Source: a virus (taxonomy: Duplodnaviria; Caudoviricetes). From it: 64,000 nucleotides of DNA. A model generated the notes under the pieces. That model did no database searches. It was not told the origin of the DNA and was given only the letters and a program-made list of their open reading frames with translations. This document shows positions 20,601-35,136 of the stretch, one piece after another (position 1 is the first letter of the stretch; each line of letters begins with the position of its first letter). The position numbers and the translations under genes are program-made. The stretch is from IMG/VR virus record IMGVR_UViG_3300002220_003351, positions 1 through 64,000 of that record; one strand, written 5' to 3'.

Positions 20601-22211
20601 ATCGACATGGACCGGCTGGGTGAGATCCTGGGGATCTCCGCAAAGATCACCCGGTACATCAGCTCTATTAACACGCAATACAACCCCGTGTTCGGTGTGG
20701 TCAACTTCATCAGGGACGTGGGGACCGCCATGCTGAACCTCTCCACGACCCCCATCAGCGGGAAACAAAAAGAGGTCGCCCAGAACTCACTCCCTGCCCT
20801 GAGGGCCATCTTCTCCTCCCTGAGAGGAGGGACCACCAAGTCCGCGTGGGGTGATCTCTGGAGGGAGTTCCAGGAGAGGGGCGGGAGGACCGGGTACAGG
20901 GATCTCTTCAGGACCCCCACCGCGAGAACAGAAGAAATAGAGAAAGAAATCAAGGGTCTTACCAGGGGGCAGGCCATGAAGAAGGGGAGAGTCCTGTTTG
21001 ATCTTCTCTCCCACTACAACACCGCAATGGAGAACGCTGTCCGGCTCTCGGCCTACAAGGCGGGGATTGATTCCGGGATGACCAAGGACGCCGCCGCCGT
21101 AATGGCGAAGGAGCTCACGGTCAACTTCAACCGCAAGGGCCAGATCGCTACCCAGGCAGGGGCAATGTACGCCTTCTTCAACGCTTCCGCTCAGGGTATC
21201 TCAAGGATGTACCAGACCCTCGCGGGGCCTGCCGGAAAGAAGATCATCTACGGGGGGATCACGGTCGGGGTTCTCCAGGCGGCCCTTCTTGCGGCGGCAG
21301 GGTTCGATGATGACGAGCCCCCACAATTCGTTAGGGAGAGAAACCTCGTCATCCCCACGGGGGGGAAGAGTTATATCACCATCCCCTTCCCTCTGGGGTT
21401 CCACTTCCTCCCGAACTTCGGAAGGATCGTTTCCGAGTGGGCTCTGTCGGGATTCGATAAGCCCCTCGACAGGCTCGGGGACTATGCCGGGGTCCTTGCG
21501 GAAGCCTTCAACCCTCTCGGGTCTTCGGGGGTCTCGTTGCAGACCATCACCCCCACCCCCATCGACCCGCTGGTGGCTCTGGCGGAGAACAAGGACTGGA
21601 CCGGGAAGCCGATCGCCCGACAGGACTATAGCCAGCTCTCCCCCACTCCGGGGTTCACAAGGGCCAAGGACTCCGCAACGGTCTTCGGGAAGGCGTTTTC
21701 CTGGGCGCTCAACATGCTCTCCGGGGGGACCAAGTACAAACCCGGCCTCTTCAGCCCCACCCCGGACCAGATAGACTACCTCGGGGGCCAGCTCCTTGGG
21801 GGCGTGGGGAGGGAACTCGGGAAGGCGGAACAATTTATTACCGGGGCCGTCACCGGGGAGGAAGTGCCCACCTACAAGATCCCCCTCGCGGGGAGGTTCT
21901 TCGGGACCACCGAGGGATCCACCCAGGAGAGGTCGAGGTTCTTCACCAACATCAAGGAGATGAACAAGCACGAGAACGAGATCAAGGGAAGGATGAAATC
22001 CGGCCAGCCCATTTCCGGGTACTTCAAAGACAACCCTGAGGCGAGGATTTGGAGGGCCGCCAACGCCGTCGAGAACAGCATCTCAAGGCTCAACCAGCAG
22101 AAGCGTGCCCTCAAGGAAAGAGGGGCCTCCAAGGTCTCTATGGAGACCTTGGACAAGCTCATCTACTCCAAGATGAAGAACTTCAACGAGCGCTACGAGG
22201 CCCTCAGATGA
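14616..22211 (+). CDS. Large polyvalent ejection protein (2531 aa) with HExxH metallopeptidase motif, three ART-fold modules and C-terminal LPD38-like region
   Basis: HEAIH at 16908-16922; ILTHWS..., YFYHRP..VWLS..GDIP and GPVYHG..F..F..YLSMKNPL modules; ENAVRLSAY..TVNFNRKG..FFNASAQG..NKDWTGKPI typical of LPD38. Confidence 0.8.
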   Translation: MAEDYTWLQPLRPETEEEAPPEASSLFRRGVVDPLVGLAKGTIVGIPETVIGLANIPTLGYAGKAVEAGMRGVGLRTLPEMEEAMTGLLTPETRQAQKEVQETKGFFPTVGAALQRPSTIAQVVAESIPSMAVGARVAGAALGVGAQGISKAERLRRGIMAGGIGEGAITAGQNIESIRQQTEEGVLTPEQVAIGAVSGALTGAIGMASGKFAKWLKLEDFDTLLTGARSGVVGGDAKNVFKKIIVNAFREGVIEELPQSLQEQIAENIALGKPIDDNVMEQGAMGMLAGFAQGAGAQIAGDLLDRVKRKDPVDEAIDKMIAETDPEMAAMVNPPVIPETPKAPAAPAPEAVPPAAPIQEAPVALVAPEAPAKTPVETVPVTQEAEAPAPEAITPVEQPAEGQVSPPAEVPPVEDQVTRDAAATHPAEYTKGREDIAKVIASSGVETAAAQIDAYKKGVQNWIAQNGEPNEKVKGTIAMIKGMEDALVSPATIAEQPAGETLAPKTATAPSETPIAPGAEIAPQEAVSKEIPPQEARTPAETAVGMAPEEKAVPEAKTALEQAVPEIPALLQKSDEHYARAKALMNSTDPKDQALAQQELAAGAKTFAQWRKENPNTPDPREGQGTQMVREKISQAKTLKATLKANQEGVDKQLKEKVITPEVHDAVSKINKKLERLKLNVPVRYAKAATRTDEGDSIVIDANTKEGAQVLRKQGWSEDRINKAKEVGYVARISAETVRHEDSPGGPVRQEVILYDQSESVDARHEAIHVLVGAGILDPGPAPRGVTERAHEERFVDQVLKDIESGKVDFETLGEAQAQAKPKTSTKAKESLKRIRLEAKRSLEVEANITTVSSEEKIAKRLAAGDRYLAAIDRKILDLNNRGSELLATDQEGAQKLFSQAIRLQKQVLGDQFSQIEGLTDLVFKEGHGRYEGGGEATLVIQAKVPEEKTGLFKAILAREGITHDQNAVYVSYNIDVTEPEGWDQSQYPSTIFYFEKRLTPRESELIIQLMTESGIGGSTYLPADMTLTLKHIKEYDPEAVEWEKKIDSFIDKMKASGIQHRHSRIWQKIDDIRRDDYEGLVRKHAAEIAHTIARGRIRQEARGYPDVPGGEGRPLQEAGDYYGRGGGYIREAASTGPGPGRSVGKPSGLSEKDIREGRYSVQISKQEALKKKIILKKDPSAGSPVDFKNKDVILTHWSKEPNLTKTDPEKHGTGYSGAERKSKDAYPNLWIQKTYAGYGTYEAEEGLGPHRYQIDIKGNDLYDIWEDPLKLDPSADEVRKMGYYTAAAQHLIHEQRIRQLGFKGFVSTPHNVAAIYEPVSVQKVEPATETLPQKESRYSVSPEQGKGTVGDKQAEYAEKFKGDYQFDPETQVLIGSRYPTVVPRYFYHRPPSELKEGIKAYKNRNADGSSEYIDKAFGAPASDNIVWLSRQPDYGKTSSLRIDLAQLDPANLRDTGQAEGNIWHRGDIPESAIVRQSPEQGKGDAAYLKAVKSGDMETAQKMVDEAAREAGYKIGPVYHGAGEKFNQFDTRGGGWFISSKKEAAEYGNGEDIVSAYLSMKNPLTMTHKENATYGAELAERKARRLGNDGVIIPANKEFAEENVYTEAEHDVYVALSPEQIKSADPVTYDDQGNVIPLSERFNEKSPDVRYSIKTTLSNAIAYMTGKSQTPVSSTTQSASWDTPQKTKMSDMVYSIFDKQIDMREVVKNIKAYLGSIKEDIDPSQKETLFHGRVATKSEDFIRDEFHPLIEDMAAKKVDLEEFETYLWNRHAEEANNYVASINQNMPDKGSGIATQDARDYLAALDPKKRMVYAALAKRVDAILEKNAQILLDEGLESKSTIDRWKKAYRHYVPLFREDLEGRLGTGTGFSVTGASSKGRHGSTRPVANILANIAEQRDRYIVRSEKNRIAKALYGLAKLNPNEEFWRLARPTIETHTDIDTGLTVKIAGLGYKQRDNVVMHREIDPKTKEVVEKGVEFNDRNERALRMAHAIRNIDMDRLGEILGISAKITRYISSINTQYNPVFGVVNFIRDVGTAMLNLSTTPISGKQKEVAQNSLPALRAIFSSLRGGTTKSAWGDLWREFQERGGRTGYRDLFRTPTARTEEIEKEIKGLTRGQAMKKGRVLFDLLSHYNTAMENAVRLSAYKAGIDSGMTKDAAAVMAKELTVNFNRKGQIATQAGAMYAFFNASAQGISRMYQTLAGPAGKKIIYGGITVGVLQAALLAAAGFDDDEPPQFVRERNLVIPTGGKSYITIPFPLGFHFLPNFGRIVSEWALSGFDKPLDRLGDYAGVLAEAFNPLGSSGVSLQTITPTPIDPLVALAENKDWTGKPIARQDYSQLSPTPGFTRAKDSATVFGKAFSWALNMLSGGTKYKPGLFSPTPDQIDYLGGQLLGGVGRELGKAEQFITGAVTGEEVPTYKIPLAGRFFGTTEGSTQERSRFFTNIKEMNKHENEIKGRMKSGQPISGYFKDNPEARIWRAANAVENSISRLNQQKRALKERGASKVSMETLDKLIYSKMKNFNERYEALR
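18639..18658 (+). repeat. 20-bp direct repeat, copy 1 (TCCCCGGAACAGGGTAAGGG)
   Basis: Exact match to 19047-19066; encodes SPEQGKG in both copies. Confidence 0.95.
19047..19066 (+). repeat. 20-bp direct repeat, copy 2
   Basis: Exact match to 18639-18658. Confidence 0.95.
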
Positions 22212-23442
22212 CCCCGTTGTAGAGCCTCCCGTCCCCCACCTTCCGCATGATCTTGTGGACGAGGCTCTTGAAGTTGCCGTGGGTTAATTCCTCCACCTTA
22301 GGGAGGTACCTCGCCTCCACACACAGGGCGAACACCTTTTGGAGGCACTCAAGCTGCTCCTTGTGTTCTTTGGGGATGTTCAGAAAGCTGGTGTCGAAGA
22401 AAGATTCCGTGATGTCCGAGTAGTCCCCCGTGTAAAACCCTTTCTCCTTGCAGTAGTCCCCCAGATTCGTCCCGGGGTACGGGGAGAAGATCGAGCACCA
22501 TCCGTAGGCCGGTTGGCAGAGGACGTTGACCTCAAGGGTCTCAAGGTCCTCCTCTATCGTGGCCGTGGGGAGCCCGATCATGTTCTGGATCATGAGCCTT
22601 ATGTTCCACTTCTTGAGGAACCTCGCTGCCTCACGGGCGCTCTCCAGGGTTACATCCGTCCTATTAAGGAGTTTTCTGAGCCTCGTGCTTGCGGCCTCAA
22701 GGGCTATCCTGACGCTGAAGCACCCGGCGTCGTGGAGCAGGAGAACCCTCTCCTCGGTGACCTGGCTGGGCCTGAGGTGGCAGTGAAAGGGGATGTTGAC
22801 CCTCGATCGGTACTTCGGGGAGAACTCCTTGAGCCATTTCATCGAGGTTCCGAAGCAGGAATCCTGAAAGTAAACGAATTCCATCCCTTCGATGTCGCAG
22901 ATTTCCTCTATTACGCTCTTAACGCTTCTGAGTCTTACCCTTGGAATCTCGGGGAACATCTTGGCCCATCTGTCAGAATAGCAATAATTACAAGCACCTG
23001 GACAACCCCGGGAAGCGATGAAGTCCCTGATCTTCATGTTCGGGAAGTCCGTCCTGTCCGGGTACGGGATCGAGTCGAGGTTCGGGTACTTAGCCGGGGA
23101 CCCCAGAAGCTCCGCAAAACCTTGCTCCGCTTCGCCCTTGAAAACAATGTTGAAGTCATCTCCGAAGTCCTCCGGGAAGAAGGTTGCATGGGGGCCTCCG
23201 GCGATAATGACCGGGGGGTTATTCCTCGTTTTGATCTCACGGGCGATATCTTTGACCATCACCTGATTGCCTGTCATCACCGAGAACCCGACGATGTCCG
23301 GCTTCCATTTCTTCTCCTCTGCCAGGACATCCTTGAACTCGACGATCCTGCACTCATGTCCCGCCTGTTTCGCCACCGCAGAGAGATACATCGGACCCAG
23401 AGTCTCCATCTTTTTGGACTTCACCGCCAGCAGGACTCTCAT
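22204..23442 (-). CDS. B12-binding radical SAM protein
   Basis: N-terminal cobalamin-binding pattern (LGPMYLSAV..IVGFS..GGPHAT) and SRGCPGACNYC. Confidence 0.9.
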   Translation of the reverse strand: MRVLLAVKSKKMETLGPMYLSAVAKQAGHECRIVEFKDVLAEEKKWKPDIVGFSVMTGNQVMVKDIAREIKTRNNPPVIIAGGPHATFFPEDFGDDFNIVFKGEAEQGFAELLGSPAKYPNLDSIPYPDRTDFPNMKIRDFIASRGCPGACNYCYSDRWAKMFPEIPRVRLRSVKSVIEEICDIEGMEFVYFQDSCFGTSMKWLKEFSPKYRSRVNIPFHCHLRPSQVTEERVLLLHDAGCFSVRIALEAASTRLRKLLNRTDVTLESAREAARFLKKWNIRLMIQNMIGLPTATIEEDLETLEVNVLCQPAYGWCSIFSPYPGTNLGDYCKEKGFYTGDYSDITESFFDTSFLNIPKEHKEQLECLQKVFALCVEARYLPKVEELTHGNFKSLVHKIMRKVGDGRLYNGVI

Positions 23443-23699
23443 TGTTCCTCCTCAGGAAATAGAATCGAAAACCCTTCTCGAAGACTTTGTTCGTTGATTA
23501 TGGAGAGCGGCTTTAATCTGATGCTCTTCTGGTAGACCGAGACAACCTTGCCGGAACAAATGATGTATTCCGCCTTGCATGACCTGCACGCCACCTGGAT
23601 CCCGTCTATGGTCTCCCGGAGGGTCGTGTTGATGTTTCCACTCAAGTGGAGAGTCTCGTCGGACTCTATGTCTTCACTCCCGCAGAAGTGGCACCTCAT
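23439..23699 (-). CDS. Small zinc-ribbon protein
   Basis: CHFC and CRSC pairs; overlaps with both neighbours. Confidence 0.6.
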   Translation of the reverse strand: MRCHFCGSEDIESDETLHLSGNINTTLRETIDGIQVACRSCKAEYIICSGKVVSVYQKSIRLKPLSIINEQSLREGFSILFPEEEQ

Positions 23700-24103
23700 T
23701 GGACGACCTTTATCCCGGTGATTTCAGACATTCTTTCGTCAATGAACCGGTGGATCTCGCAGCAGCATTTCCCCTCGCTGTTGATTTGGGCCGACCCCAC
23801 CCAGGCATAGGGGATCATGTCGTTCTGGGCGGGCCTCATCAGGTATATGAAGAACCCGTTGAGCTGCGGCGCTCTCTCGTCCGTGTGCTCGGTCATCAGA
23901 ATACCGAGGGAGTTCATCTGGTCCGGAATGTCATCCCGGGTGACATCAACCCCTAATGTCTTAAGGACAGAGTCTATCCCCGCCTCAAGGACCTCGACGG
24001 CCTTGTGGGCCGGGGAGTCCTTGACTTGGACCTTCTTGAGCATCCGGGCGCACAGCTCATCCTCGGATACCTCAAACCACGCTTTCTCGACCTTGTCGCT
24101 CAT
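23696..24103 (-). CDS. Hypothetical protein
   Basis: Start reassigned to ATG 24103 (GGAGG RBS, ATGA overlap with the upstream stop). Confidence 0.6.
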   Translation of the reverse strand: MSDKVEKAWFEVSEDELCARMLKKVQVKDSPAHKAVEVLEAGIDSVLKTLGVDVTRDDIPDQMNSLGILMTEHTDERAPQLNGFFIYLMRPAQNDMIPYAWVGSAQINSEGKCCCEIHRFIDERMSEITGIKVVQ

Positions 24104-25290
24104 AGCACCTCCAAACGCGGGATTGCCGTTACGAATTTCGCTTTCCATTTCCGAATGTAGGATAACTGTTCCATGATCTCCTCTTTGAGGTTCCAAGGGA
24201 GTATGAGGACATATTCCGGGAGAGTGCACTTTATGCGGCTTTCCCCGAGAACCGGGATATGGCTTCCCGGGAGATATTTCCCCTGCTTGTGGGGGGATTT
24301 GTCCACCACGGAATGGATAAGGTCCCTGTTGATCCGGCAGTAGTTAAGGAGGGTGTTCCCTTTGGCCGGGGCTCCATAGGCAACAATCTCTGCCCCGTTT
24401 GTAACCAGAAACCTCAGAAGATCACGGCGGATGTTTTCGGCCCTGTGCTGTAAAAACTTAGCCCTGGCCAAAGTGTCCGATTCCTTCCTGAGGACCCTTT
24501 TTATGTTCTTTAAGGGTTTCCTCTCCCCCTCGTGGCAGGCGTAGATTCTAAGGCTTCCCCCGTGTTCCGGGATCTCGTCGACATCGAACACCGTCAGCCT
24601 ATGTTTCTTGAAGATCTTCATGATGATATCGAGGCTGAAGTAGTTGTAGTGCTCATGATAGATCGTGTCGAACTGGTTGTATCTCACGAGGTTCATCAGG
24701 TGCGGGAACTCGGCGGTGATAATCCCTTCAGGGGCGAGGGCGATCTTCATCCCCTCCACGAAGTCGTTGATGTCCGGCTGATGGGCGATGGTATTGATAG
24801 AGCAGATGAGGTCGGCCACAGGGAATAAATTGCCCTCAATGCCAACAAAATCACAACCAAAGAACCGCTTTACCGTGTTTATCCCCTTTGATTCTGCGAT
24901 GGAAGCGGGTCCTTCCGCAGGCTCAAAACCGAGCACCCCGCACCCCATCTGCTTGAACCATTGAAGCATATACCCGTCATTGCTTCCGATCTCCACGACA
25001 CGCTTGATGTGCGGGAATCTCTCAAGGATCATCTCCGCAAACTCTTTCGCATGGGACACATTTGAAGGGGACTGAGAGGAGAAATAGGGGTAGTCCTCCC
25101 TGAAGATCTCGGAGGCCTTCTTCATCTCCGGAATCTGGACCAGCCCGCAGGCACAAACATAGACCTTCAGCGGGTAGTAGATTTCCGGCTCCTCCAGTTG
25201 CTCCTTCGTCAGGAATGAGTTGGCCGGGGGCTGGTGGCCAAGGTCTATGAAGACATCCCTTAATGTCTTGTGGCAGAACCTGCACTTCAT
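24100..25290 (-). CDS. NDP-hexose C3-methyltransferase (TylC3/EryBIII-like, Zn-binding N-terminus)
   Basis: CRFC..DLGHQPPANSFL..YPLKVYVC, VEIGSNDG, HEHYNYFS, GAPAKGNTLLNYC, QGKYLPGSHIP. Confidence 0.9.
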   Translation of the reverse strand: MKCRFCHKTLRDVFIDLGHQPPANSFLTKEQLEEPEIYYPLKVYVCACGLVQIPEMKKASEIFREDYPYFSSQSPSNVSHAKEFAEMILERFPHIKRVVEIGSNDGYMLQWFKQMGCGVLGFEPAEGPASIAESKGINTVKRFFGCDFVGIEGNLFPVADLICSINTIAHQPDINDFVEGMKIALAPEGIITAEFPHLMNLVRYNQFDTIYHEHYNYFSLDIIMKIFKKHRLTVFDVDEIPEHGGSLRIYACHEGERKPLKNIKRVLRKESDTLARAKFLQHRAENIRRDLLRFLVTNGAEIVAYGAPAKGNTLLNYCRINRDLIHSVVDKSPHKQGKYLPGSHIPVLGESRIKCTLPEYVLILPWNLKEEIMEQLSYIRKWKAKFVTAIPRLEVL

Positions 25291-26363
25291 ATTATCGCCT
25301 CCAATAGATCAAGTTTCCCTTGGTAATCGTCAATATCATCGTCCGTGGCAATGATTCCATGCTCGTAATAGGCCCGGTACCAATCTATCGTCGTTTCCAC
25401 CGCTTCCTCCATGGTCCTGATGGGCCTCCACCCGAGGAGCTTTCTGGACTCCGTGGAGTCAATCTTCAGGAGATATTGCATATGCGGGTGGGTGGGGGTG
25501 TTGTCTACTTCCCATTGGATCTTGGGCCACACACTTCTGGCTGTCCGGAGGACCTCAAGGACGCTCATTTCCCCGTCCGGGCCGAAGTTCCATGCCCGGT
25601 TGACATCCTGTCCCATTAAGATCTTCTCCCCCAGGATGAGATACCCGGACAGCGCCTCCATCACATGCTGGAAAGGCCTCGTGGCGTTTGGGGTGTGGAC
25701 GATGACCGTCTCTCCTTTGGACGTTGCCCTCACGATATCGGGGATGAGCCTCTTGTAACTCCAATCTCCCCCACCGATCACATTCCCGGCCCTTGCGGTA
25801 GCGATGTTCATCCCGAATGACTCCCTGTAACACCTTATCACCTGTTCCACGCAGACCTTTGAGGCCGAATACGGGTCCACCCCTCCGAGTTCGTCTACCT
25901 CCCGGTATCCCCATGACCATTCCTTGTTCTCATAGATCTTGTCGGTGCTGATCACGACGACCCCTTTGACGCTGGGCGTCTTCCGGCAGGCCTCAAGGAT
26001 GTTCACCGCCCCCATGACATTGTTCTCGAAAGTCTCCCGGGGTTCCGTAAAGGTCCGGGCGACGATGGCACGAGCGGCGAGATGGATCACAAGGTCGGGC
26101 CTATCGAAGCCTAACACCTTACCGAGCAATCCGAAGTTCAGAAGATCCTGCCCCGGCATTAAATGAAGATCGGGAAGGTCATTTGACTTATAATTTATCG
26201 GATTCCCGAGGAGCTCGTGGTGATTGGGAACAGTATTTGGCATGTGTCCGTACCCAGTAACCTCTGCCCCCAGCCTCTTGAGCCAATGGCAAAGCCAGCT
26301 ACCTTTATATCCCGCGTGGCCGGTAACCAAGACCTTCTTCCCTCTGTAGATTTCAAACATCAC
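25287..26363 (-). CDS. rfbG: CDP-glucose 4,6-dehydratase
   Basis: VLVTGHAGYKGSWL, STDKIYEN, DPYSASK, ARAGNVIGGGDWS, RPFQHV. Confidence 0.92.
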   Translation of the reverse strand: MMFEIYRGKKVLVTGHAGYKGSWLCHWLKRLGAEVTGYGHMPNTVPNHHELLGNPINYKSNDLPDLHLMPGQDLLNFGLLGKVLGFDRPDLVIHLAARAIVARTFTEPRETFENNVMGAVNILEACRKTPSVKGVVVISTDKIYENKEWSWGYREVDELGGVDPYSASKVCVEQVIRCYRESFGMNIATARAGNVIGGGDWSYKRLIPDIVRATSKGETVIVHTPNATRPFQHVMEALSGYLILGEKILMGQDVNRAWNFGPDGEMSVLEVLRTARSVWPKIQWEVDNTPTHPHMQYLLKIDSTESRKLLGWRPIRTMEEAVETTIDWYRAYYEHGIIATDDDIDDYQGKLDLLEAII

Positions 26364-26563
26364 ACTGCTCCTTTCATTACCCTTAGCCGTCGGCCGTCCA
26401 CCGTTCCTTTCCAGTAATCCTCAACCTCAAATCCAAGGGCCTTTAGGATCTCGATCAGCTGCTCTACCGTGACAGTTTGCCCGGAAATAATGACTGCCCG
26501 CTGCTGATGCGCTTCCTTGCGGGGCTCCGGGTGCCCTGGTATGTCAAAATCCGGTGTCATCAT
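26360..26563 (-). CDS. Small hypothetical protein
   Basis: 67 aa, overlaps both neighbours. Confidence 0.5.
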   Translation of the reverse strand: MMTPDFDIPGHPEPRKEAHQQRAVIISGQTVTVEQLIEILKALGFEVEDYWKGTVDGRRLRVMKGAV

Positions 26564-27450
26564 CCCCCCCTTGCGTCAAGATAGATCTTGTCCATGCTCG
26601 ATAGGAGCACCTGGCAGTTCTTGCAGCAGCCTATGTCGGTGATCCTCCCTTCCAGCATCATATTTCTGAACCTCTGGAACTTGAAGTTGTTGTAGATCTT
26701 CATGGGGTCGGTCTTGAAGACGTTCCCCCGGACCCTCATGTCCCCGCAGCAGAGGATCACATCCCCGTTGATGAAGAGGAGCATCCGGTTCAAAAGGTCC
26801 GGGCAGATCTGTTTTGTCTCCCCGAAGGCGGCGATCCTATTGAGCCTCTCCTGGCGCTTCTCCTCGACCTCGGTTCCCCAGACATCGTAACAGGCCACCT
26901 GGTCCCCGAACTTTTTTGAGAGCACTCCCCTCCAGATCTCGCTGTATTCAGGCCACTCCTCCCTGTTGATATCCTGGCGGATCATCCTCATGATGATCTT
27001 GGTATTTCCGCAAGAGTTCCTCAGGTTGATAAACCTGACGATATTCTCCATGACCTTGCCGTAATCCACCTTCCTGATCTTTTCGTGAGACTCTTTGAAC
27101 CCGTCCACCGAAAAAATGATCGTGTCGAGTCCGGCCGCCATAAGATGGTGAGCCATGCGTGCGTCCACATGAGTGGCGTTTGTGGCGAACCCCACCCCCT
27201 TGAACCCCCGGGCCTTTGCCTCCCGTACCTTGGTGATGATCGTGGGGTCCAAAAGTGTCTCCCCCAGCCCCTGGAGGTTGAGGTACTTGAGCCTGTCCAC
27301 ATAGGGCTCGAAAGCCTCCAGGATCCTTATGAAGTCCTTCACGCTCATCACCCCCTTCCGGGGGGACTCCTTGATGTTGCACATGACGCAGTTGGCGCTG
27401 CACTTCCCGGCGAGGGTCTCGATCTGTAGATACTCTGGGAAATAAATCAT
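26560..27450 (-). CDS. Radical SAM protein with SPASM/twitch domain
   Basis: KCSANCVMC; LQGLGETLL; C-terminal CP..GDVILCC..CKNC. Confidence 0.88.
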   Translation of the reverse strand: MIYFPEYLQIETLAGKCSANCVMCNIKESPRKGVMSVKDFIRILEAFEPYVDRLKYLNLQGLGETLLDPTIITKVREAKARGFKGVGFATNATHVDARMAHHLMAAGLDTIIFSVDGFKESHEKIRKVDYGKVMENIVRFINLRNSCGNTKIIMRMIRQDINREEWPEYSEIWRGVLSKKFGDQVACYDVWGTEVEEKRQERLNRIAAFGETKQICPDLLNRMLLFINGDVILCCGDMRVRGNVFKTDPMKIYNNFKFQRFRNMMLEGRITDIGCCKNCQVLLSSMDKIYLDARGG

Positions 27451-29141
27451 AGTGGTAACACCTCCTGAGCCAACAATGGCTGCACCGCATCAATCCTGCG
27501 CTCAGACATGGAACAGTAATCCGGGTTCAGCTCAATCCCGATGTATTTCCTTCCCAACTTCTCCGCTACCACGCCCGTGGTCCCCGCCCCGGAGAATGGG
27601 TCAAGGATGGTATCCCCCGGCTTGCTCCCCGCCTTTATGCAGATTTCCGGTATCTCCGGTGGGAAAGTGGCAAAGTGATCGCAAGTAATGACTTGACAGG
27701 TGCATTTCGCTGTGGTAGAGATGTCACATGGCAAATCCGAATCAACGATTAGGGAAGGTTGTTTCTTGTCAGGTATGTGGCAAGGAATTTTACCGGAAAC
27801 TTTATCACATGAAGCTATCTGAGAAGTGCTTCTGTGGTTTTGCTTGCTATGCAAAATGGCAATCTCTGAACTGTCGGGGTTCAAACAATCCAAACTATCA
27901 GCCGGACGCATGGCGGGAATACGACTGTTTTTGGTGTCAAAAGAAGTTTCGCCGACGGTTTCTTGACCATCAAAGGAATGTGTCTCGAACAGGCCGGGCG
28001 TTCTGCTCCCGTCTATGCTGGCAGGAATACGCCCATTATGCCCTTCAAAAGATTTCATATCATTGGAGTTCAAAGGCATGGAATCGCTCTCGTTTGAAGG
28101 TTCTGAAACGAGACAATTATCTTTGTCAGGATTGCGGATCAAATCAGGACTTGATTGCCCATCATCTAATCCCATTCGCAACTTTGCTCGGTTCTCCAGA
28201 TGCCCATGAACTGGACAATCTTTTGACAGTTTGTAGGGCTTGCCATCGCCGCCGACATAATCAGACATCATCTTAGCCCCATTGAAGGGCTTTGTGGTTA
28301 TCGTCCAGACGGAACGGCGGTTACGGGTGTTGAGTGGTTCGGCCTGCATGCTCTGGCCGCCTGGAATTGATGATCGGTGGCGGCTTTCAATGTCTGATCG
28401 TAACTCTTTCCGGTCCGGCCCGACGTTCGGATGGTTCAGGAGATTCTTCCCGTCGTCAAACTTCGATCCTTTCCGCGAATCAGCCCGCCGCGTGAACCCC
28501 TGCCCATAAGGTGACGCGATACTCTCTGGGCTGTTGGGGATCCCATAAGCGGCCGGTTCCTTCACCGCCTCCGCATCGTAGTAATACCTTGCCGATTTCG
28601 TCAGCAGGAAAATGTATTCATGCGCCTTCGTGCATCTGTCCGTCACGCTCTCCGGCATGGGGTTCGGCTTCGCCCAAATGATGTCCTGCCTTAACCACCA
28701 ACCGTCCGCTTGAAGGGCGAAGGCGACACGCCACGGGATGCCTACGAGGTCTTTGGGCTTGAGGTCACCGCAGTCTTTTTGTGAACCGTTGTTGCCGATG
28801 TCACGCTTTGCCTTGGCTGTTCCAGCCCATAGTCCAGACTTCTGTGGTGAATGCCGCTTGTATGGCTTGCCTCTGGCTGAACCAACTCCCAACGAGTACG
28901 AGTCCCCCAAATTCAGCCACAGCACCCCGTCATCCCGCAGCACCCGGCGAACCTCTCGGAACACCGCAACCAGATTCGCAACGTATTCCTCCGGCGTCTT
29001 CTCCAAACCCAACTGACCAGCAACACCGTAATCCCGCAACCCCCAATACGGAGGCGAAGTCACGCAGCATTGAATCGTGTTCGCCCCCATACTTTTTAGC
29101 ACCTCCTGACAATCCCCTGTAATTATCACCACACCTTCCAT
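27447..29141 (-). CDS. DNA N4-C/N6-A methyltransferase (beta class) with a 199-aa in-frame insertion
   Basis: ITGDC, CCVTSPPYWGLRDYG (motif IV), QDIIWAKPNPMPESVTDRCTKAHEYIFLL, RSVWTI, HFATFPP, DPFSGAGTTG (motif I); start set at ATG 29141. Confidence 0.9.
   Translation of the reverse strand: MEGVVIITGDCQEVLKSMGANTIQCCVTSPPYWGLRDYGVAGQLGLEKTPEEYVANLVAVFREVRRVLRDDGVLWLNLGDSYSLGVGSARGKPYKRHSPQKSGLWAGTAKAKRDIGNNGSQKDCGDLKPKDLVGIPWRVAFALQADGWWLRQDIIWAKPNPMPESVTDRCTKAHEYIFLLTKSARYYYDAEAVKEPAAYGIPNSPESIASPYGQGFTRRADSRKGSKFDDGKNLLNHPNVGPDRKELRSDIESRHRSSIPGGQSMQAEPLNTRNRRSVWTITTKPFNGAKMMSDYVGGDGKPYKLSKDCPVHGHLENRAKLRMGLDDGQSSPDLIRNPDKDNCLVSEPSNESDSMPLNSNDMKSFEGHNGRIPASIDGSRTPGLFETHSFDGQETVGETSFDTKNSRIPAMRPADSLDCLNPDSSEIAILHSKQNHRSTSQIASCDKVSGKIPCHIPDKKQPSLIVDSDLPCDISTTAKCTCQVITCDHFATFPPEIPEICIKAGSKPGDTILDPFSGAGTTGVVAEKLGRKYIGIELNPDYCSMSERRIDAVQPLLAQEVLPL
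27678..28274. mobile_element. Dual-coding insertion in the methyltransferase carrying an antisense HNH gene
   Basis: Separates KPFNGA from HFATFPP, which are normally adjacent; 597 nt, no stop in the MTase frame; AT-richer than flanks. Confidence 0.8.
27693..27721 (+). promoter_or_regulatory. Candidate sigma70 promoter for the antisense HNH
   Basis: TTGACA 27693-27698, 17 bp, TG-extended TAGAGA 27716-27721 (partial -10), 7 nt before ATG 27728. Confidence 0.4.
27728..28276 (+). CDS. HNH endonuclease with zinc-ribbon repeats, antisense within the MTase
   Basis: CQVCGKEF, FCGFAC, GSNNPNY, CFWCQKKF, VLKRDNYLCQDCG..AHH..NLLTVCRACH. Confidence 0.88.
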   Translation: MANPNQRLGKVVSCQVCGKEFYRKLYHMKLSEKCFCGFACYAKWQSLNCRGSNNPNYQPDAWREYDCFWCQKKFRRRFLDHQRNVSRTGRAFCSRLCWQEYAHYALQKISYHWSSKAWNRSRLKVLKRDNYLCQDCGSNQDLIAHHLIPFATLLGSPDAHELDNLLTVCRACHRRRHNQTSS

Positions 29142-29899
29142 GGGGCTTTTCCCTCCTTCCATAACGACTGCAATCCGTCCAGGTCCTTTAATGTGTCGAG
29201 GCATCCCCAAAAGCCCTTGTGCTCATAGACCATCAATTCCCCCTTGTTGGCGAGAAGCTCCATGGGGCCGACCTCAAGGTCGCACCACTCATCCTCGCAG
29301 AGGTAATCGAAGATCCCTTGGGTGAACACAAAGAACCCCCCGTTTATCAGATCCCCTCCGAGGGGCTTCTCGGAGAACGAGATCACCTTCCCCCCGTCCC
29401 GGTGGATCTCCCCGAACCTCGGGGCCGGATGGATCCCGGTGACCGTGGCGATCTTCTTGTGGGACAGGTGGAACTCAAGCAACTCCTTCAGGTTGATGTC
29501 GGAGATCCCGTCCCCGTAGGTGCAGAAGAAGTTATCGCCTGTGACGTGCTTCTGGACCCTCTTGAGCCTCCCCCCTTTGAGGGTGGCCTCCCCGGTGTCT
29601 ATCATCGAGACCCTCCAGGGGTCTATGTTCGAGTCCAGATACTCCGTTATGGGGACGCTTCCAATATAGAACCTGATGACATCCCGGTTGATGTAATCGA
29701 AGTTGTTGAAGTAGCTCTTAATGATCTCCTGCTTGTACCCGAGGGCCAGGACAAAGCTGTTGAACCCATAATGGGAGTAGATCTTCATGATGTGGTAGAG
29801 CATGGGCTTCCCCCCGATGGGGATCATCGGTTTGGGGATAAATTCGCTCATTTCTCTCAATCGAGTTCCGCTTCCACCGCATAGTATGACTGTTTTCAT
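29126..29899 (-). CDS. rfbF: Glucose-1-phosphate cytidylyltransferase
   Basis: VILCGGSGTRL..PKPMIPIGGKP, ALGYK, TYGDG, INGGFFVF, GFWGCLDT, APWKVW. Confidence 0.93.
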   Translation of the reverse strand: MKTVILCGGSGTRLREMSEFIPKPMIPIGGKPMLYHIMKIYSHYGFNSFVLALGYKQEIIKSYFNNFDYINRDVIRFYIGSVPITEYLDSNIDPWRVSMIDTGEATLKGGRLKRVQKHVTGDNFFCTYGDGISDINLKELLEFHLSHKKIATVTGIHPAPRFGEIHRDGGKVISFSEKPLGGDLINGGFFVFTQGIFDYLCEDEWCDLEVGPMELLANKGELMVYEHKGFWGCLDTLKDLDGLQSLWKEGKAPWKVW

Positions 29900-30621
29900 T
29901 CAGTCCTCCTAATAAGCCACCCTCCCTCAGCAGAGGTCAAAAGGGCCTGGGCCTCGATCTCCTGGTCGGCCTCGAACCCCGGGTTACCACTTAGAAACTC
30001 CCTCACCGCCGTCATGGGGTTGTTCCCCGGCCCCCACGGCTTGTCCCCGCAGTCCACATTCATGGTCTCGATGGTGGTGTCGAACACCACGATATAGGAC
30101 CCCGCCGGGACGAGCCTCGAATAAAGGTTCAGCTCATTCAGCACATGCTCGTGCGTGTGGGAGGAGTCCAGAACCACGATCACCTTGTCTCCCCCCACAA
30201 GCGCCCTCACCTTTCCGTAAGTCTCCGGGGAGGTGCTGTCCCCCTCTATGAGATGGATCCTGTTCCAGAGGGGGCTTTCCATGAGGGCCTTGCGGTTGTG
30301 GTCCCTGATCTCGATGTCCACCCCTATAACCTGTCCCCACTCGATGCTCTCCATGACGGAGGCGTAGAACAGGAGGGATCCCCCGAATGCCACCCCGGTC
30401 TCGATGACGAAGTCCGGCTCGATCCTGCAAATGAGTTCCTGCATGGCGAACATGTCTGTGGGGAGCTGGAGGATGGGCTGGCCCATCCAGGTCCAGTTCT
30501 TGACATACTCGGTTTCGATTATAGCCTCGTAGAGCTTCTTTTTCCGATACTGGATGAACGTCGGAGAATCACCACTCAGCCTCTTTGTTCTTTCCTGGAG
30601 ATACTCTTCTATCGGATTCAT
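29896..30621 (-). CDS. CmcI-like (cephalosporin hydroxylase / rhamnosyl O-methyltransferase family) protein
   Basis: WMGQPILQLP.D, IETGVAFGGS, VLDSSHTHEHV, YIVVFDT, GNNPMTAV. Confidence 0.88.
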   Translation of the reverse strand: MNPIEEYLQERTKRLSGDSPTFIQYRKKKLYEAIIETEYVKNWTWMGQPILQLPTDMFAMQELICRIEPDFVIETGVAFGGSLLFYASVMESIEWGQVIGVDIEIRDHNRKALMESPLWNRIHLIEGDSTSPETYGKVRALVGGDKVIVVLDSSHTHEHVLNELNLYSRLVPAGSYIVVFDTTIETMNVDCGDKPWGPGNNPMTAVREFLSGNPGFEADQEIEAQALLTSAEGGWLIRRTE

Positions 30622-32074
30622 ACATTTTCCTTTCGCAAAGGGAGAGGTAGTCTTGAGCCCACTTGTGGCCCTGAGATCGCTTCAGGACCTCCTTAAAACA
30701 CTTCGCCGCTGTTTCGTAATCCCCGATCTTCATCCGGTAGTTGTTGTGGAAATTGAGCTCGATGTTCATGTTGTAGATCTTGTCGAACACCTCCCCGGGG
30801 TCGATGCCGGGGACCTTGATGAAGTAGCTCTCCCTGTCCGAGTAGGACCCGATCACCCTTTCCCCAATACCTGTCTTCTCGATGTAGCCCTTGTCGATGC
30901 ACTCGTCATAGAGGGGGCTCCCTCTGAAGGGGACGACGGGGTTGAAGAAGCACCAGTCGAACCCGACATCGTTGATGAACAGGGACGTTTCCCTCCGGTG
31001 GGCGTCTGTCTCCCCGGGCATCCCCATGACGAAGAACCCGATGACGAAGATCCCGTTGTTCCGGAGGGCCTCGACGGCTGGTTTCACGCAGGCGAGGTTT
31101 ATGGGCTTCCTCATTAACTTGTGAAGGACGTAGTCGGACCCGTTCTCCACCGCCAGGTAAATGGTGTCCATCCCGGCCTGCTTCATGAGCCCAGCCATCT
31201 CCTCGTCGATAAAGGTCACCGACAACCCGTTGGGGCACTCGATCCTAAGCTTGTAAGGGGCGAGTTTTCTAAAGAGTTCCTTGGCCCTCCCCATCCGTAT
31301 TAAAAGCTGGTCGTCGTAAATTGTCAACGTATCCATCCCGTATTCTTTAACCATCCTGTCAACATGGGCGATGATCCTGTCCACGGAGGCGAACCTCATC
31401 TTCTGCCCGTGGATCTTTGCGTTAGCGCAGTAGGTGCACTCAAACGGACACCCCCTTGAGGTAACAAGGAAGAACTTGCTCCGGCGCTCGTCAGAGAACG
31501 GGGAGAAGGCCTCCTTCATCTTGTACCCATTGATGTCCACCAGCCCATAGTCCAGATCCACAACCTGGTCGAGGTCCTCAAGGTAGGAGATGGTTGGGGG
31601 ATCGAGTTTGCCCTTTGTGACCCACGCAGGGTCCGAGAAGTTCCCGTGGGTGAGCAGGGACCTCATGGGAACCTCCCCCTCGGAGTAGCAGATCGCATCC
31701 AATAGGGGCTGGTCCTTCAGGATCTCCTTATAGGAGTAGGAGGCGGCGGCCCCGCCAAGAATCCGGATCGCATTGGGATCGACGCTCCACGACAGATCCA
31801 GCAACTGGTTAAGGAGCGGGTAGGAGTTGTCGAACATCATCGTGAACCCGATAATGTCCGGGCGGTACTCCCGGATATAAAGCTCCAATGTAATATCGGG
31901 GCAGTCGCGGTAGAAATTCAGGTCCAGTATCCTGAAGTCCGCGAGCCCCTTGTTGTAGGTGGCGATACTCAAGGCCCCATACGGGAAGGCGGCGTAGCTG
32001 TGAACCCTCGTTTCCGTTGACGGCCTCTCCACCACATACGGGAGGACTACAAAAAGAACCTTCTTTTTGGCCAT
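30569..32074 (-). CDS. B12-binding radical SAM protein
   Basis: FPYGALSIATY, IIGFT, LGGAAAS, TSRGCPFECTYC, IECPNGL, LAVENG. Confidence 0.9.
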   Translation of the reverse strand: MAKKKVLFVVLPYVVERPSTETRVHSYAAFPYGALSIATYNKGLADFRILDLNFYRDCPDITLELYIREYRPDIIGFTMMFDNSYPLLNQLLDLSWSVDPNAIRILGGAAASYSYKEILKDQPLLDAICYSEGEVPMRSLLTHGNFSDPAWVTKGKLDPPTISYLEDLDQVVDLDYGLVDINGYKMKEAFSPFSDERRSKFFLVTSRGCPFECTYCANAKIHGQKMRFASVDRIIAHVDRMVKEYGMDTLTIYDDQLLIRMGRAKELFRKLAPYKLRIECPNGLSVTFIDEEMAGLMKQAGMDTIYLAVENGSDYVLHKLMRKPINLACVKPAVEALRNNGIFVIGFFVMGMPGETDAHRRETSLFINDVGFDWCFFNPVVPFRGSPLYDECIDKGYIEKTGIGERVIGSYSDRESYFIKVPGIDPGEVFDKIYNMNIELNFHNNYRMKIGDYETAAKCFKEVLKRSQGHKWAQDYLSLCERKMYESDRRVSPGKNKEAEW

Positions 32075-33015
32075 CTCTCAAGGACCTCCTCTGCCCTCGA
32101 ATCAAGATCGTCCTGCTGAAGGGTGATGACATCCGGGATCTTGCACCCGTTGCAGGCGTCGTAAAGTATCTGCCGGTTCCGCAGTTTCTTGAGCATCATC
32201 ACGAGGAACTTATTCATCTCCTCGCTCTCCCACGCCTTCCTGATCGTGGTCTCCCTGACGTTCCCCAAATAAAGGGGGTCGTAATAGGAGCAGCAGGGCA
32301 AAATATCCCCCGAAGCCGTTATGTTGAGGTTATAGAACGGGTGGGGGCAGACAAGGACAGGGGGGTGGGGTTGCCGGAACTTGTTCTCCTCGTTTTCCCC
32401 CTCCTCGAAAATCGGGCAGATCTTCTCGACGTACATCCTGTCGCTGATGTTCTTGAAGATGGAGTAGAACTTCTCCTCGTCCCCCCCGACGGTCTTGACG
32501 TAGACCTCGCACCCCCTCTTGTTCTTGTACAGATAGGAGATGTTGCTCACGAACTTCCTGAAGTCCAGACTGACCCCCGAGACCTTCTTGTAGCCCTCTG
32601 CATTAAGGGCTTGTACGGAGATCTTGATGGCATCCACCCTCGCCCCCACAAGGAGGCCGGACACGAAAGGGCTCAAGAGGGAGCCGTTGGTCACCAGGGA
32701 AATCCTCTCGGCCACCTTCATCTTCTTCATGAAGGCGATCATCAGGGGGAGGTCCTTGTTCATGAGCGGCTCCCCCCACCCGGCTATGGTGATCTGCTTG
32801 ATGGGGCTCGTGAAGTCCTGGAGCTGGTCGCAGATCATGAAAAAGGTGTCCCAGTCCATCATCGGCCCGATCTTGTGCTTGGACTTGATGCAGTACCCGC
32901 ACCGGAAGTTGCAGACCTCGGACGGGGTGATCTGGATGGCCAGCGGCTGCACCAATGGGACCGTGTCCGCGAGGATCGTCCTGTTGTCGTCGTAGCTCGG
33001 CTTGATTTCGGACAT
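32047..33015 (-). CDS. Radical SAM protein with SPASM/twitch domain
   Basis: VCNFRCGYC, GWGEPLM, VTNGSLL, CPHPFYNLNITASGDILPCC..CNGC. Confidence 0.9.
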   Translation of the reverse strand: MSEIKPSYDDNRTILADTVPLVQPLAIQITPSEVCNFRCGYCIKSKHKIGPMMDWDTFFMICDQLQDFTSPIKQITIAGWGEPLMNKDLPLMIAFMKKMKVAERISLVTNGSLLSPFVSGLLVGARVDAIKISVQALNAEGYKKVSGVSLDFRKFVSNISYLYKNKRGCEVYVKTVGGDEEKFYSIFKNISDRMYVEKICPIFEEGENEENKFRQPHPPVLVCPHPFYNLNITASGDILPCCSYYDPLYLGNVRETTIRKAWESEEMNKFLVMMLKKLRNRQILYDACNGCKIPDVITLQQDDLDSRAEEVLERWPKRRFFL

Positions 33016-33023
33016 CTCACCCC

Positions 33024-33254
33024 CTAATTAAAGTCGTACCCGGTTCCATTGCATCTCGGACATTTCTTCCCCTTCCGGATCTTCCAGAGGTGATCCATCC
33101 TCCTGATGAAGCACCTGGTCCACTTCTGGGCGTACCTGTTTCTGTCGTCCTCTGAGCCGTCCCCGGAATAGACGGCCCCGTGGAGCTTGTTCGCGTACTT
33201 CTCGGCGGCGGGGATCAGCCTGTTCCTTTCGGTTTCGTATTCGAGGTTTGTCAT
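33024..33254 (-). CDS. Small hypothetical protein with C-terminal CPRCNGTG
   Basis: 76 aa, operon-embedded. Confidence 0.55.
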   Translation of the reverse strand: MTNLEYETERNRLIPAAEKYANKLHGAVYSGDGSEDDRNRYAQKWTRCFIRRMDHLWKIRKGKKCPRCNGTGYDFN

Positions 33255-34252
33255 ATTGCGTCCCTCTCCTTCTTCGGGGAATCCATCATTTCCTCAAATG
33301 TGGTGCTCCAAGCCTGGATCATGTAGTCCAACGAATAGAGCTTCGCCGCCCGCTCCCTCGCCCTTGCCCCCATTTTGAGCCTCACCTCCTTGTGGGCGGC
33401 AAGATACTGGACCCTGTGGACATATTCCTTTTCGTTCCGGGCAATGAACCCGTCCCACCCATCGGAGACAATGTACCTTTCGGGCAAGTTGTCCATCACC
33501 ACCGGGGGGATCCCCGCCGCCATGGCCTCCCCCAGGACCTGTTCGCAGGTCCCGTAGTGGTCGTGCCTCAACGGGTACCCGAAGATATCCATGCCTTCAA
33601 GGTAGGGGGCGACATCATCCACCTTCCCGGTAAAAGTGATGGACCCGTTGAAAAACGAATCCGGCTGGTTGGCGATATTGTTCTCCCCGACAACCGTAAA
33701 GTGGATATCGGGGACTGCCGACGCGATCTCATGGACCATCGAGACAAATTCCCCATGGAGCTTTTTCCAGTCGACTGTACCCACATACCCCACATTGATC
33801 CCCTCATGGGGTTTGTTGACGATCTTCAGGAACCTATCCACCCCTCCCGTGGACCAGATCATCTGGTATTTCCCCCCACCGACCACAGGTGAGGTCACCA
33901 CGAAGCGATCGGCGTAAGACGGCTCACTACCCAGGGGGAAGTTTTTGTGAGCCCACAGGGCCAACCTGCTGGCCGGGAGGGGCCTCTTAAGGAAGGCTTG
34001 GAGCATCGGATGGTCCCATAAATGGATTACCACGACATCCGACCCCTCGATGAGCTGGTCGACGGTGTCGAGGCTGCGGATCATCTCCCACCCCAGGCCG
34101 ATCTTGTTCTTTACCAGAAAAGAGCCGACCTTCTCGTTCAGGGTGTCCAGGGAGAGCACCGTATGGGTGTTCCCCTTGTCTCCCCCGACCCACCCCATCA
34201 CGACCGTCCCGACTCCTCCCCCGTAGTGGGGACTGATGTGAAGGACTTTCAT
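33251..34252 (-). CDS. Glycosyltransferase (GT4-like)
   Basis: VLHISPHYGGGV, NVGYVG, FTGKVDDV, DIFGYP, EQVLGEAMAAGIPPV. Confidence 0.85.
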   Translation of the reverse strand: MKVLHISPHYGGGVGTVVMGWVGGDKGNTHTVLSLDTLNEKVGSFLVKNKIGLGWEMIRSLDTVDQLIEGSDVVVIHLWDHPMLQAFLKRPLPASRLALWAHKNFPLGSEPSYADRFVVTSPVVGGGKYQMIWSTGGVDRFLKIVNKPHEGINVGYVGTVDWKKLHGEFVSMVHEIASAVPDIHFTVVGENNIANQPDSFFNGSITFTGKVDDVAPYLEGMDIFGYPLRHDHYGTCEQVLGEAMAAGIPPVVMDNLPERYIVSDGWDGFIARNEKEYVHRVQYLAAHKEVRLKMGARARERAAKLYSLDYMIQAWSTTFEEMMDSPKKERDAI

Positions 34253-34452
34253 ATAATCCCCCTTTCCCTCTGGTGGACCCTCCGGGCCTTCTCCCGATCA
34301 CCCTGATGGGGCTTGTACTTGTTCCGGCTCAAAGCCCTCAGTCCGGGCCTGTCCCTGAACAGACGACGATACCAGGGCAGTTTAAGTTCCTGCGTATTGC
34401 TGAATATCGTCGCCAACAACGCTCTTCCTAACGGAACCTGTTCCTGTTTCAT
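34249..34452 (-). CDS. Small hypothetical protein
   Basis: 67 aa, ATGA overlap, GGAGG-like RBS. Confidence 0.5.
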   Translation of the reverse strand: MKQEQVPLGRALLATIFSNTQELKLPWYRRLFRDRPGLRALSRNKYKPHQGDREKARRVHQRERGII

Positions 34453-35048: not shown

Positions 35049-35088
35049 ACCTCCTACACTTTAATTGTTTCTTAATGACAACCTTCAT
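34927..35088 (-). CDS. Small zinc-ribbon protein (53 aa)
   Basis: ATG 35088 after GGAGGG; CRRCDYEW.PR...CPRCHSPYWD. Confidence 0.7.
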   Translation of the reverse strand: MKVVIKKQLKCRRCDYEWNPRKPDVRVCPRCHSPYWDRSRESDTADARKGGRR

Positions 35089-35112
35089 GATCCCTCCTGT
35101 GTGATTATGAAT

Positions 35113-35136
35113 ATATTGCTTGAAATCATTTGTCAA
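35113..35136 (-). promoter_or_regulatory. Candidate internal sigma70 promoter
   Basis: TTGACA (complement of 35131-35136) followed by AT-rich TATATTCATAAT, upstream of the Zn-ribbon gene; exact -10 uncertain. Confidence 0.45.

Follow-up and report, generated by a model that had tools for sequence, protein, structure and literature searches.

Introns and inteins are the textbook routes by which homing endonucleases come to reside inside essential or conserved genes. The locus described here raises the question of how a complete HNH endonuclease gene can sit within a conserved part of a phage DNA methyltransferase (MTase) gene when the features of neither route are found. The locus lies in IMG/VR virus record IMGVR_UViG_3300002220_003351 (Duplodnaviria; Caudoviricetes), of which positions 1 to 64,000 were analyzed (hereafter the window, 64 kb of a 72.9-kb record estimated to be 81% complete). 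In this window the minus-strand MTase frame contains 199 extra codons between RSVWTITTKPFNGA and HFATFPP, and the opposite strand of the same DNA encodes the nuclease. The best explanation, which we hold with good but not full confidence, is a non-splicing antisense homing cassette that is read through as a clasped loop of the MTase.

An HNH gene lies antisense within a DNA methyltransferase gene

The host gene occupies the minus-strand open reading frame (ORF) 27447..29210 and matches PF01555 (N6_N4 DNA MTase; E = 1.5e-48) in two separated stretches; it is the only PF01555 gene in the record. Translation is assigned to the ATG at 29141, which is preceded by a Shine-Dalgarno sequence (GGAGG) at a distance of 9 nt, while an alternative in-frame TTG at 29210 would give a protein of 587 aa. 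With motif IV in the N-terminal part, the target-recognition region in the middle and motif I in the C-terminal part, the enzyme has the arrangement of a beta-class N4/N6 MTase, and the AlphaFold2 model places its core at a predicted local distance difference test score (pLDDT) above 90, with structural matches to CcrM, M.BceJIV, M.MboIIA and M.PvuII (template modeling scores of up to 0.81, normalized by target). The features of the locus are as follows.

27447..29141, minus strand: whole MTase frame, 564 aa from ATG 29141, including the insert and the stop codon (27447-27449)
28275..29141, minus strand: N-terminal MTase part with motif IV (TSPPY), NPMPESV, the variable target-recognition region and RSVWTITTKPFNGA, assigned from Pfam profile positions 1-124 and alignments
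27678..28274, no strand assigned: mobile insert of 597 nt, equal to 199 codons (K290..D488 in the MTase frame), free of stops, with bounds taken from empty alleles
27447..27677, minus strand: C-terminal MTase part with HFATFPP, the S-adenosylmethionine-binding motif I (DPFSGAGTT) and the stop, assigned from Pfam profile positions 161-220 and PDB sequence matches over residues 486-562
27728..28276, plus strand: HNH endonuclease gene, 182 aa, antisense to the MTase, with codon position 1 opposite MTase position 1
28124..28264, plus strand: HNH catalytic domain, CxxC...HH...N...CxxCH...H, assigned from the Pfam stretch 133-179 and the residues invariant in the alignment

The bounds of the insert follow from two homologous loci that carry an empty allele, reading ..TKPFKEA/HFATFPP in L043 and ..TKPFNGA/HFATFPP in L105; because these give both junctions, the insert is exactly 597 nt, 27678-28274. 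A preliminary description of this DNA, made from the letters alone, had noted the 597-nt gap between a KPFNGA-type motif and HFATFPP, and the insert indeed sits exactly between the two. That description had placed the insert at 27678-28276; its start stands, but its end must be moved to 28274, since 28276 includes two further bases, which complete the HNH stop codon. This stop (TAG, 28274-28276) spans the junction with the N-terminal MTase part (the N-junction, as opposed to the C-junction at the other end), the T belonging to the insert and the AG facing the host Ala codon. The insert has a GC content of 46-47% against 54-58% in the flanks, a difference of about nine points. Directly after the HNH stop, a terminator-like hairpin with a T-rich tail is formed by the conserved host sequence encoding KPFNGA (28275-28291, plus strand).

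The identity of the antisense gene as an intact 182-aa HNH nuclease, already proposed from the letters, is confirmed by matches to PF01844 (E = 1.4e-8, residues 133-179), phrog_1271 (E = 9.5e-20) and PDB entry 5H0M (E = 1.6e-9), as well as by the purifying selection described below. Residues C133, C136, H145/H146, N164, C169, C172, H173 and H177 are invariant across the HNH alignment. The two frames are in a phase that sets MTase codon positions 1, 2 and 3 opposite HNH positions 1, 3 and 2. Two more HNH-domain ORFs, apparently free-standing, lie on the plus strand at 45046-45210 and 63758-64036 and match the embedded HNH with E values of 2e-6 and 4e-9.

Evidence that selection holds the methyltransferase frame open

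Searches seeded with the HNH protein found 28 loci in viral, 6 in genomic and 53 in metagenomic sequences, and six further loci were reached through MTase proteins. In 50 distinct loci the HNH is embedded in this MTase family, on the strand opposite to the MTase in every one of them, at an identical site, in an identical codon phase and with zero stops in the MTase frame (50/50). As the HNH-seeded searches are independent of whether the MTase frame is open, this recurrence is free of ascertainment bias. The preliminary description had pointed to homologous inserts, and to stops within them, as the place where its reading could fail; the 50 filled loci contain none, and the empty alleles that it had anticipated are represented by L043 and L105.

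In the present phase, a stop appears in the MTase frame wherever the second and third bases of an HNH codon are TT, CT or TC and the next codon begins with A. When the HNH gene of the window is shuffled among synonymous codons, 4.6 stops are expected and the MTase frame is stop-free in 0.1% of trials. An open frame is thus a rare outcome, as the preliminary description had held, although its value of 7e-5 was naive and is replaced by that of the codon shuffle. Over 27 loci the same procedure predicts 1.2-4.6 stops per locus, about 66 altogether, compared with none observed, and in 45 embedded genes the stop-making codon pairs number 0 against 176 expected. In 15 free-standing relatives, by comparison, the same pairs are found 123 times against 138 expected, and five free-standing HNH relatives contain 7-19 stops in the MTase-equivalent phase. 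Neither of the other two antisense frames is long in any locus. Taken together, these sequence statistics indicate that the MTase frame is held open by selection in the embedded loci and not in the free-standing relatives.

A close HNH relative (46% identity) stands free beside an unrelated gene in L054 (827-1447, plus strand), where the phase-0 antisense frame is mostly open; this copy may have escaped recently.

The HNH protein is conserved and the cassette spreads independently of its host gene

The inserts of the window and of loci L040, L041 and L042 are equal in length and 93-100% identical (those of L040 and L041 are the same in 597 of 597 nt), whereas the DNA identity of their MTase flanks is only 59-74%. 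Among these four inserts, 43 of the 55 variable sites fall at HNH third codon positions, and amino-acid differences affect 7 of 182 columns in the HNH as against 48 of 199 in the peptide of the MTase frame. The excess at third positions and the few HNH replacements argue that the HNH protein is conserved by purifying selection, whereas the loop peptide drifts freely while staying open.

On a wider scale, HNH identity and MTase identity are uncorrelated (Spearman −0.21, 276 pairs). HNHs of only 37-40% identity occur in similar MTases, as illustrated by the window and L049, with MTase cores 77% identical and HNHs 37% identical. In a tree of the MTases from which the insert columns were left out, filled and empty alleles are interleaved, requiring at least 11 state changes, of which at least three are forced by well-supported branches. 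Discordant identities, interleaved alleles, low GC content and the lack of terminal repeats together form a signature of homing, and the properties expected of a homing endonuclease gene, namely a conserved site, a patchy distribution and transfer independent of the host gene, are all found here.

The strongest of the competing explanations, which we nevertheless regard as unlikely, is that the HNH has been domesticated, either as one half of a nuclease-methylase pair directed against competitors or host DNA or as an antisense regulator of the MTase. A nuclease and a methylase would make a natural functional pair, antisense transcription could regulate the MTase, and the HNH is intact in all 50 inserts, with no decayed copy seen. 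A domesticated partner, however, is not expected to be near-identical in MTases that have diverged to the extent given above, nor to differ so strongly between MTases that are similar. These discordant identities, the interleaving of filled and empty alleles on the tree and the existence of close free-standing relatives such as that in L054 argue that the cassette moves independently rather than co-evolving with its host gene.

No record among the cultured phages of INPHARED covers at least 80% of the MTase together with the insert, and none has an HNH match of at least 60% identity; among plasmids, HNH relatives occur only as free-standing haloarchaeal genes, and no cultured carrier was identified. 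Contigs from four sequencing runs were compared at window 27735-28281, and two runs of an independent 2020 study contain an identical filled allele including the C-junction; no empty allele was seen, and no contig of these runs joins across the insert. Wastewater contigs labeled RNA-Seq (the label is a guess, and the contigs imply neither transcription, nor its strand, nor splicing) are 93-95% identical to the HNH, with 22 of the 26 listed differences at HNH third positions.

A promoter-like signal precedes the HNH gene

The preliminary description had supposed that the HNH is expressed from the opposite strand. In agreement with this, a promoter is predicted in the 50 nt that separate the HNH ATG from the C-junction.

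27693..27727, plus strand: predicted HNH promoter, with −35 TTGACA (27693-27698), a 17-nt spacer, −10 TAGAGA (27716-27721) and 6 nt to the ATG at 27728

The layout in the window is of the leaderless type, lacking a Shine-Dalgarno sequence. An ATG 6-7 nt after the −10 box is likewise found in L004, L012, L057, L010, L005, L055, L060 and L066, while in a second promoter design the −35 box lies 3-7 nt inside the junction and the −10 box, TAnAAT, is followed by a Shine-Dalgarno sequence (GGAGG) and then the ATG. The signal was quantified over 45 loci as the best match out of 12 to TTGACA-N16-18-TATAAT within 114 nt at the C-junction. The mean score is 8.87, with 29 of the 45 loci scoring at least 9, in comparison with means of 7.32 for windows within the HNH ORF (at least 9 in 12 of 225) and 7.64 for the reverse complement. 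A promoter-like signal is thus enriched at the C-junction across loci, consistent with a cassette that brings its own promoter. The two designs also account for much of the host-frame conservation near the C-junction, which is largely their mirror image, 'FY' being encoded opposite the −10 box and 'PP' opposite the Shine-Dalgarno sequence.

Conserved Cys and His codons at the insert ends suggest a zinc clasp

Two short motifs of the MTase frame, one near each end of the insert, had been read as a possible zinc clasp, CPVH on the N-terminal side and CTC on the C-terminal side. Both are present.

28206..28217, minus strand: N-side clasp motif C309-P310-V311-H312 (within S-x-D-C-P-V-H-G), opposite HNH A-H-E-L-D-N
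27696..27704, minus strand: C-side clasp motif C480-T481-C482, upstream of the HNH start codon and overlapping the −35 box

The N-side motif takes the form C[P/L/R]x[H/C/D] in 50 of 50 loci, its fourth position being H in 47, C in two and D in one. On the C-side, 47 loci have CxC, two CCC and one CxxC, at 6 or 11 residues before HFATFP, and TGT and TGC codons are mixed at both cysteine positions. Conservation alone proves nothing on the N-side, because the motif (D-Y-V-G-x-D-G-K-P-Y..S-x-D-C-P-x-H-G) mirrors the C-terminus of the HNH (A-H-E-L-D-N-L..C-R-A-C-H). The codon choices of the HNH are more informative. Opposite the host Cys, the HNH codon is GAC in 39 loci and GGC in 11, so that its third base is C in all 50; the alternatives GAT, GGT, GGA and GGG would yield Tyr, Phe or Ser in the host frame, and not stops. 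Opposite the host His, it is CAT in 46 loci and AAT in two, with CAC in two producing a host Cys and a host Asp in one locus. Opposite the host Pro, it ends in G in 46 of 50 loci, even as the HNH residue varies among L, V, E, Q, T, P and M. Across the 50 loci, therefore, the HNH residues vary (D/G, H/N and L/V/E/Q/T/P/M) while the host residues C, P and H/C/D are fixed. The frequency of the commonest third base, which is usually 0.3-0.7 along the HNH alignment, reaches 0.88-1.00 only in this block of eight codons, and the free-standing HNH relatives do not have the codon pattern.

The C-side motif lies outside the HNH ORF in many loci, and its location varies with the promoter design, falling in the −35 box or spacer, in the 5′ untranslated region or over the HNH start. 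Since its position varies in this way, no single function on the HNH side explains its conservation. The sequence thus contains what is expected of a zinc knuckle, a CPxCG-type knuckle plus a Cys pair with ligands conserved in 50 of 50 loci, and the CPx(H/C)G form, the Cys pair and the interchange of H, C and D at one ligand position most likely reflect a zinc site. The clasp part of the original proposal is accordingly strengthened, as the motifs are conserved beyond the needs of the HNH, and zinc is best described as the predicted ligand. In the AlphaFold2 model, built on a 77-row alignment, the insert ends (residues 291-320, pLDDT 66-88; residues 471-490, pLDDT 61-75) include short strands at 295-296, 302-304 and 483-484, in contrast to the 148 residues of the middle (327-474), which have a pLDDT below 50.

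Host-frame conservation also bears on the possibility that the frame is open only for the sake of the operon, translation through the insert avoiding polarity and maintaining coupling to the downstream radical-SAM gene while the MTase itself may be dead. The MTase belongs to a co-directional deoxysugar and radical-SAM operon on the minus strand, its stop codon and the ATG of the radical-SAM gene overlap tightly as ATGA, and the Shine-Dalgarno sequence of that gene lies inside the MTase 3′ end, all of which this explanation would predict. We consider it improbable nonetheless, since the C-terminal (HFATFP, DPFxGxGT) and N-terminal MTase motifs are intact in 50 of 50 loci despite deep divergence, the host-frame Cys and His residues are conserved at the protein level although coupling does not need them, and the loci occur in many different gene neighborhoods.

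In the window, the tightly overlapping operon around the MTase and a nearby polyvalent protein of 2531 aa (ART-PolyVal, LPD38) occupy positions 22204-37121 and 14616-22211; the enzymes encoded around the MTase include an NTP-transferase, a CDP-sugar dehydratase-like protein, a CmcI-type methyltransferase and radical SAM/SPASM enzymes.

No features of splicing are found in the insert

As the preliminary description had stated from inspection, no signs of an intron or intein were detected. No Rfam family, group I and group II intron cores included, was matched at E values up to 1 on either strand of 27000-29500, and since an intron would require neither an open frame nor a fixed phase, the intron reading was rejected. 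Pfam found no Hint or intein domain in the MTase, and the insert begins with Lys, ends with Asp and is followed by His, so that the Cys or Ser start of an intein and its His-Asn end with a following Cys, Ser or Thr are absent; the intein reading was rejected on these grounds. A transposon or miniature inverted-repeat transposable element was likewise ruled out, as neither 27678 nor 28274 is marked by terminal inverted repeats or a target-site duplication and both junctions are exact relative to the empty alleles.

A more general form of the splicing argument, in which the insert is removed by an unrecognized RNA or protein splicing or processing event and the conserved Cys and His residues are, for example, catalytic instead of metal ligands, appears very unlikely. 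An open frame would be required for protein splicing or processing too, both ends do have Cys and His residues nearby that are conserved, and the insert RNA folds slightly better than shuffled sequences (z = −2.1). Against this stand the negative Rfam and Pfam results and the missing intein termini, the position of the conserved Cys residues 20 residues inside the N-junction and 6-11 inside the C-junction, and a middle section that evolves freely in the host frame, in addition to an open frame and fixed phase for which an intron has no use. Last, the notion that chance or composition is enough to leave a Cys/His-rich HNH gene open in its antisense frame, which might appeal to the long antisense frames that coding DNA can have and to a phase that sets the wobble base opposite the middle base of the other frame, has a probability close to nil, being refuted by the codon shuffles, the stops of free-standing relatives, the stop-making pair counts and the shortness of the other two antisense frames.

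Other insertions occur in the same methyltransferase family

A clade with a longer HNH (290-336 aa; L036, L068/L069, L072 and L081) is inserted antisense at the same MTase site, and here the MTase is split into two ORFs. In L036 these are 2368-3813 and 1149-1490, both on the minus strand; L036 was thereby ruled out as a stop-bearing exception, as its split MTase represents a different solution and not a decayed copy. The MTases of L064 and L079 are split at other sites. The N-terminal fragments of the split enzymes have a conserved tail (L-R-x-D-L-S/T-x-E-x-R-x-Y-V...) and the C-terminal fragments a conserved head (..I-P-x-D-L-x-E-F-F-E-P), which may be docking peptides that reassemble the enzyme.

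Further inserts were seen at other positions of the gene. A second, unrelated antisense HNH of 194 aa (PF01844, E = 4e-4; PF13392, E = 2e-4) occurs in L042 (1055-1636, minus strand) and also in L106 and L107, as an in-frame, phase-0 insert at LNLGxSYA/../KPKDL; the host frame is open in three of three loci and rich in Cys at both ends. L036 contains, in addition, a same-strand, stop-free insert of the ShiLan type (see Discussion) between NPMPESV and RPTKSHEY (2757-3419, minus strand), with an HNH in another frame and the host-frame motifs CP..C and CPGC at its two ends. In the MTase of L041 (P0003, residues ~230-400), an in-frame sense-strand insert of about 170 aa follows ..ALQA and includes a LAGLIDADG-like sequence, LAATIDAEGT; Pfam, run on chosen coordinates of this insert, reported the MTase domain only, and the insert resembles the 'lone LAGLIDADG' insert of the ShiLan methylase family. 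The MTase family is thus a natural test bed for the coexistence of endonucleases with their host genes.

Discussion

The observations can be accommodated in the following scheme. An HNH gene with its own promoter would have been inserted backwards at one invariant point of the MTase gene, between ..PF-x-x-A and HFATFP. No splicing would take place; rather, the strand opposite the HNH is kept free of stops in a fixed phase, so that the ribosome would translate the MTase through some 200 extra codons, most of which encode a fast-evolving and probably disordered loop. The S-P-D-C-P-x-H-G and C-x-C motifs would most likely coordinate a single zinc ion and thereby hold the ends of this loop together, allowing the MTase fold to close around the insertion and, presumably, the enzyme to remain active. 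A sigma-70-type promoter within the insert would drive antisense transcription of the HNH, with leaderless translation suggested by the layout in the window, and the nuclease would presumably cut or nick insert-free MTase alleles in co-infecting phages, whose repair would copy the cassette in.

Several points weigh against this scheme. The loci are phylogenetically related, and products of per-locus probabilities consequently overstate the significance of the open frame. A homing cycle that is purely selfish usually leaves decayed HNH copies behind, and the lack of any among the 50 loci gives some room to the idea that the phage benefits. The HNH promoter of the window, whose −10 box (TAGAGA) is weak, was missed by a generic promoter scan because the −10 hexamer ends in A. 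The CPxH motif shares its DNA with the HNH catalytic region, as the CxC motif does with the promoter or 5′ region, and constraint at the DNA or RNA level could therefore add to their conservation. Finally, the AlphaFold2 output was read as pLDDT and secondary structure, and AlphaFold2 does not model zinc.

The closest known system is the ShiLan domain (PMC9957025, PMC11855218), a 202-aa stop-free insertion in the mycobacteriophage methylase gp65 with an HNH hidden in the +3 frame of the same strand. Its authors (Gosselin et al. 2023; Arsenault, Gosselin & Gogarten 2025) describe a lack of intron and intein features, a patchy distribution and an AlphaFold model in which the insertion is looped out, and propose leaderless translation (PMC9957025, PMC11855218). 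The insert reported here shares with ShiLan the in-frame, stop-free addition of about 200 codons to a methylase, the complete hidden HNH, the absence of intron or intein features and the patchy distribution. It differs in that the HNH is antisense and has its own predicted promoter, and in both MTase subfamily and site, the ShiLan sequence (compared from the supplement of the paper) being inserted in ..GWGTALKP/..FEPIVVARKP, far upstream of its H-x-T-V-K-P. A zinc clasp and codon-level selection on the host frame have not been reported for ShiLan, and the ShiLan paper uses none of the terms antisense, opposite strand and reverse.

Other arrangements are more distant. Free-standing endonucleases of T4-like phages, such as mobE in nrdA of Aeh1, mobA in gene 60 and seg43 in gene 43 (PMC2988022), also have genes of the HNH or GIY-YIG type that sit, with no intron or intein, in a conserved and critical part of a host gene whose function is retained, but the product there is two separate polypeptides, whereas here the host frame runs through the insert. 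Nuclear group I introns harbor antisense homing endonuclease genes (PMC9548176) that likewise lie opposite the host strand with their own expression signals; those elements are self-splicing, in contrast to the present insert, in which no ribozyme was detected and the host frame is open.

Inteins excise themselves through the chemistry of the Hint domain and carry the nuclease in the same polypeptide. Like an intein with an endonuclease, the cassette is apparently translated in frame at a conserved host site and spread by homing; unlike one, it has no Hint domain or splice residues, its nuclease is a separate product of the opposite strand, and the host protein apparently retains the insert. 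The antisense form of a hidden HNH was not found in the literature searched. The preliminary description had presented the arrangement as a third way for homing endonucleases to occupy a gene, and its reading of the locus is supported by the comparative results, but the concept was not new, having been published for ShiLan in 2023 and 2025. As far as we can see, what is unpublished is the antisense layout, the cassette's own promoter, the breadth of 50 loci and the host-frame clasp. A stronger claim, that these loci form a distinct and widespread non-splicing class in which a purpose-built zinc clasp ties off a loop of ~150 residues, amounting to a structural 'excision' combined with dual coding on two strands, strikes us as evenly poised between right and wrong.

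The antisense cassette, like the same-strand ShiLan insertion, would represent a third route beside introns and inteins, one in which the insert stays in the protein. It is also a clean natural case of long dual coding on two strands, extending over ~180 codons, and here codon choices directly reveal the selection on each of the two frames: stop-making codon pairs are purged, and four predicted ligand residues of the host frame are held in place by 'silent' sites of the HNH. Because only the long MTase ORF is called, standard annotation hides such nucleases and reports oversized 'methylases', an error that recognition of the antisense pattern corrects. If the clasp is real, it offers a compact and portable way to insert large loops into enzymes, and the HNHs of these cassettes, if they act as proposed, would be site-specific nucleases of a new kind, with a highly conserved sequence of the MTase as their target.

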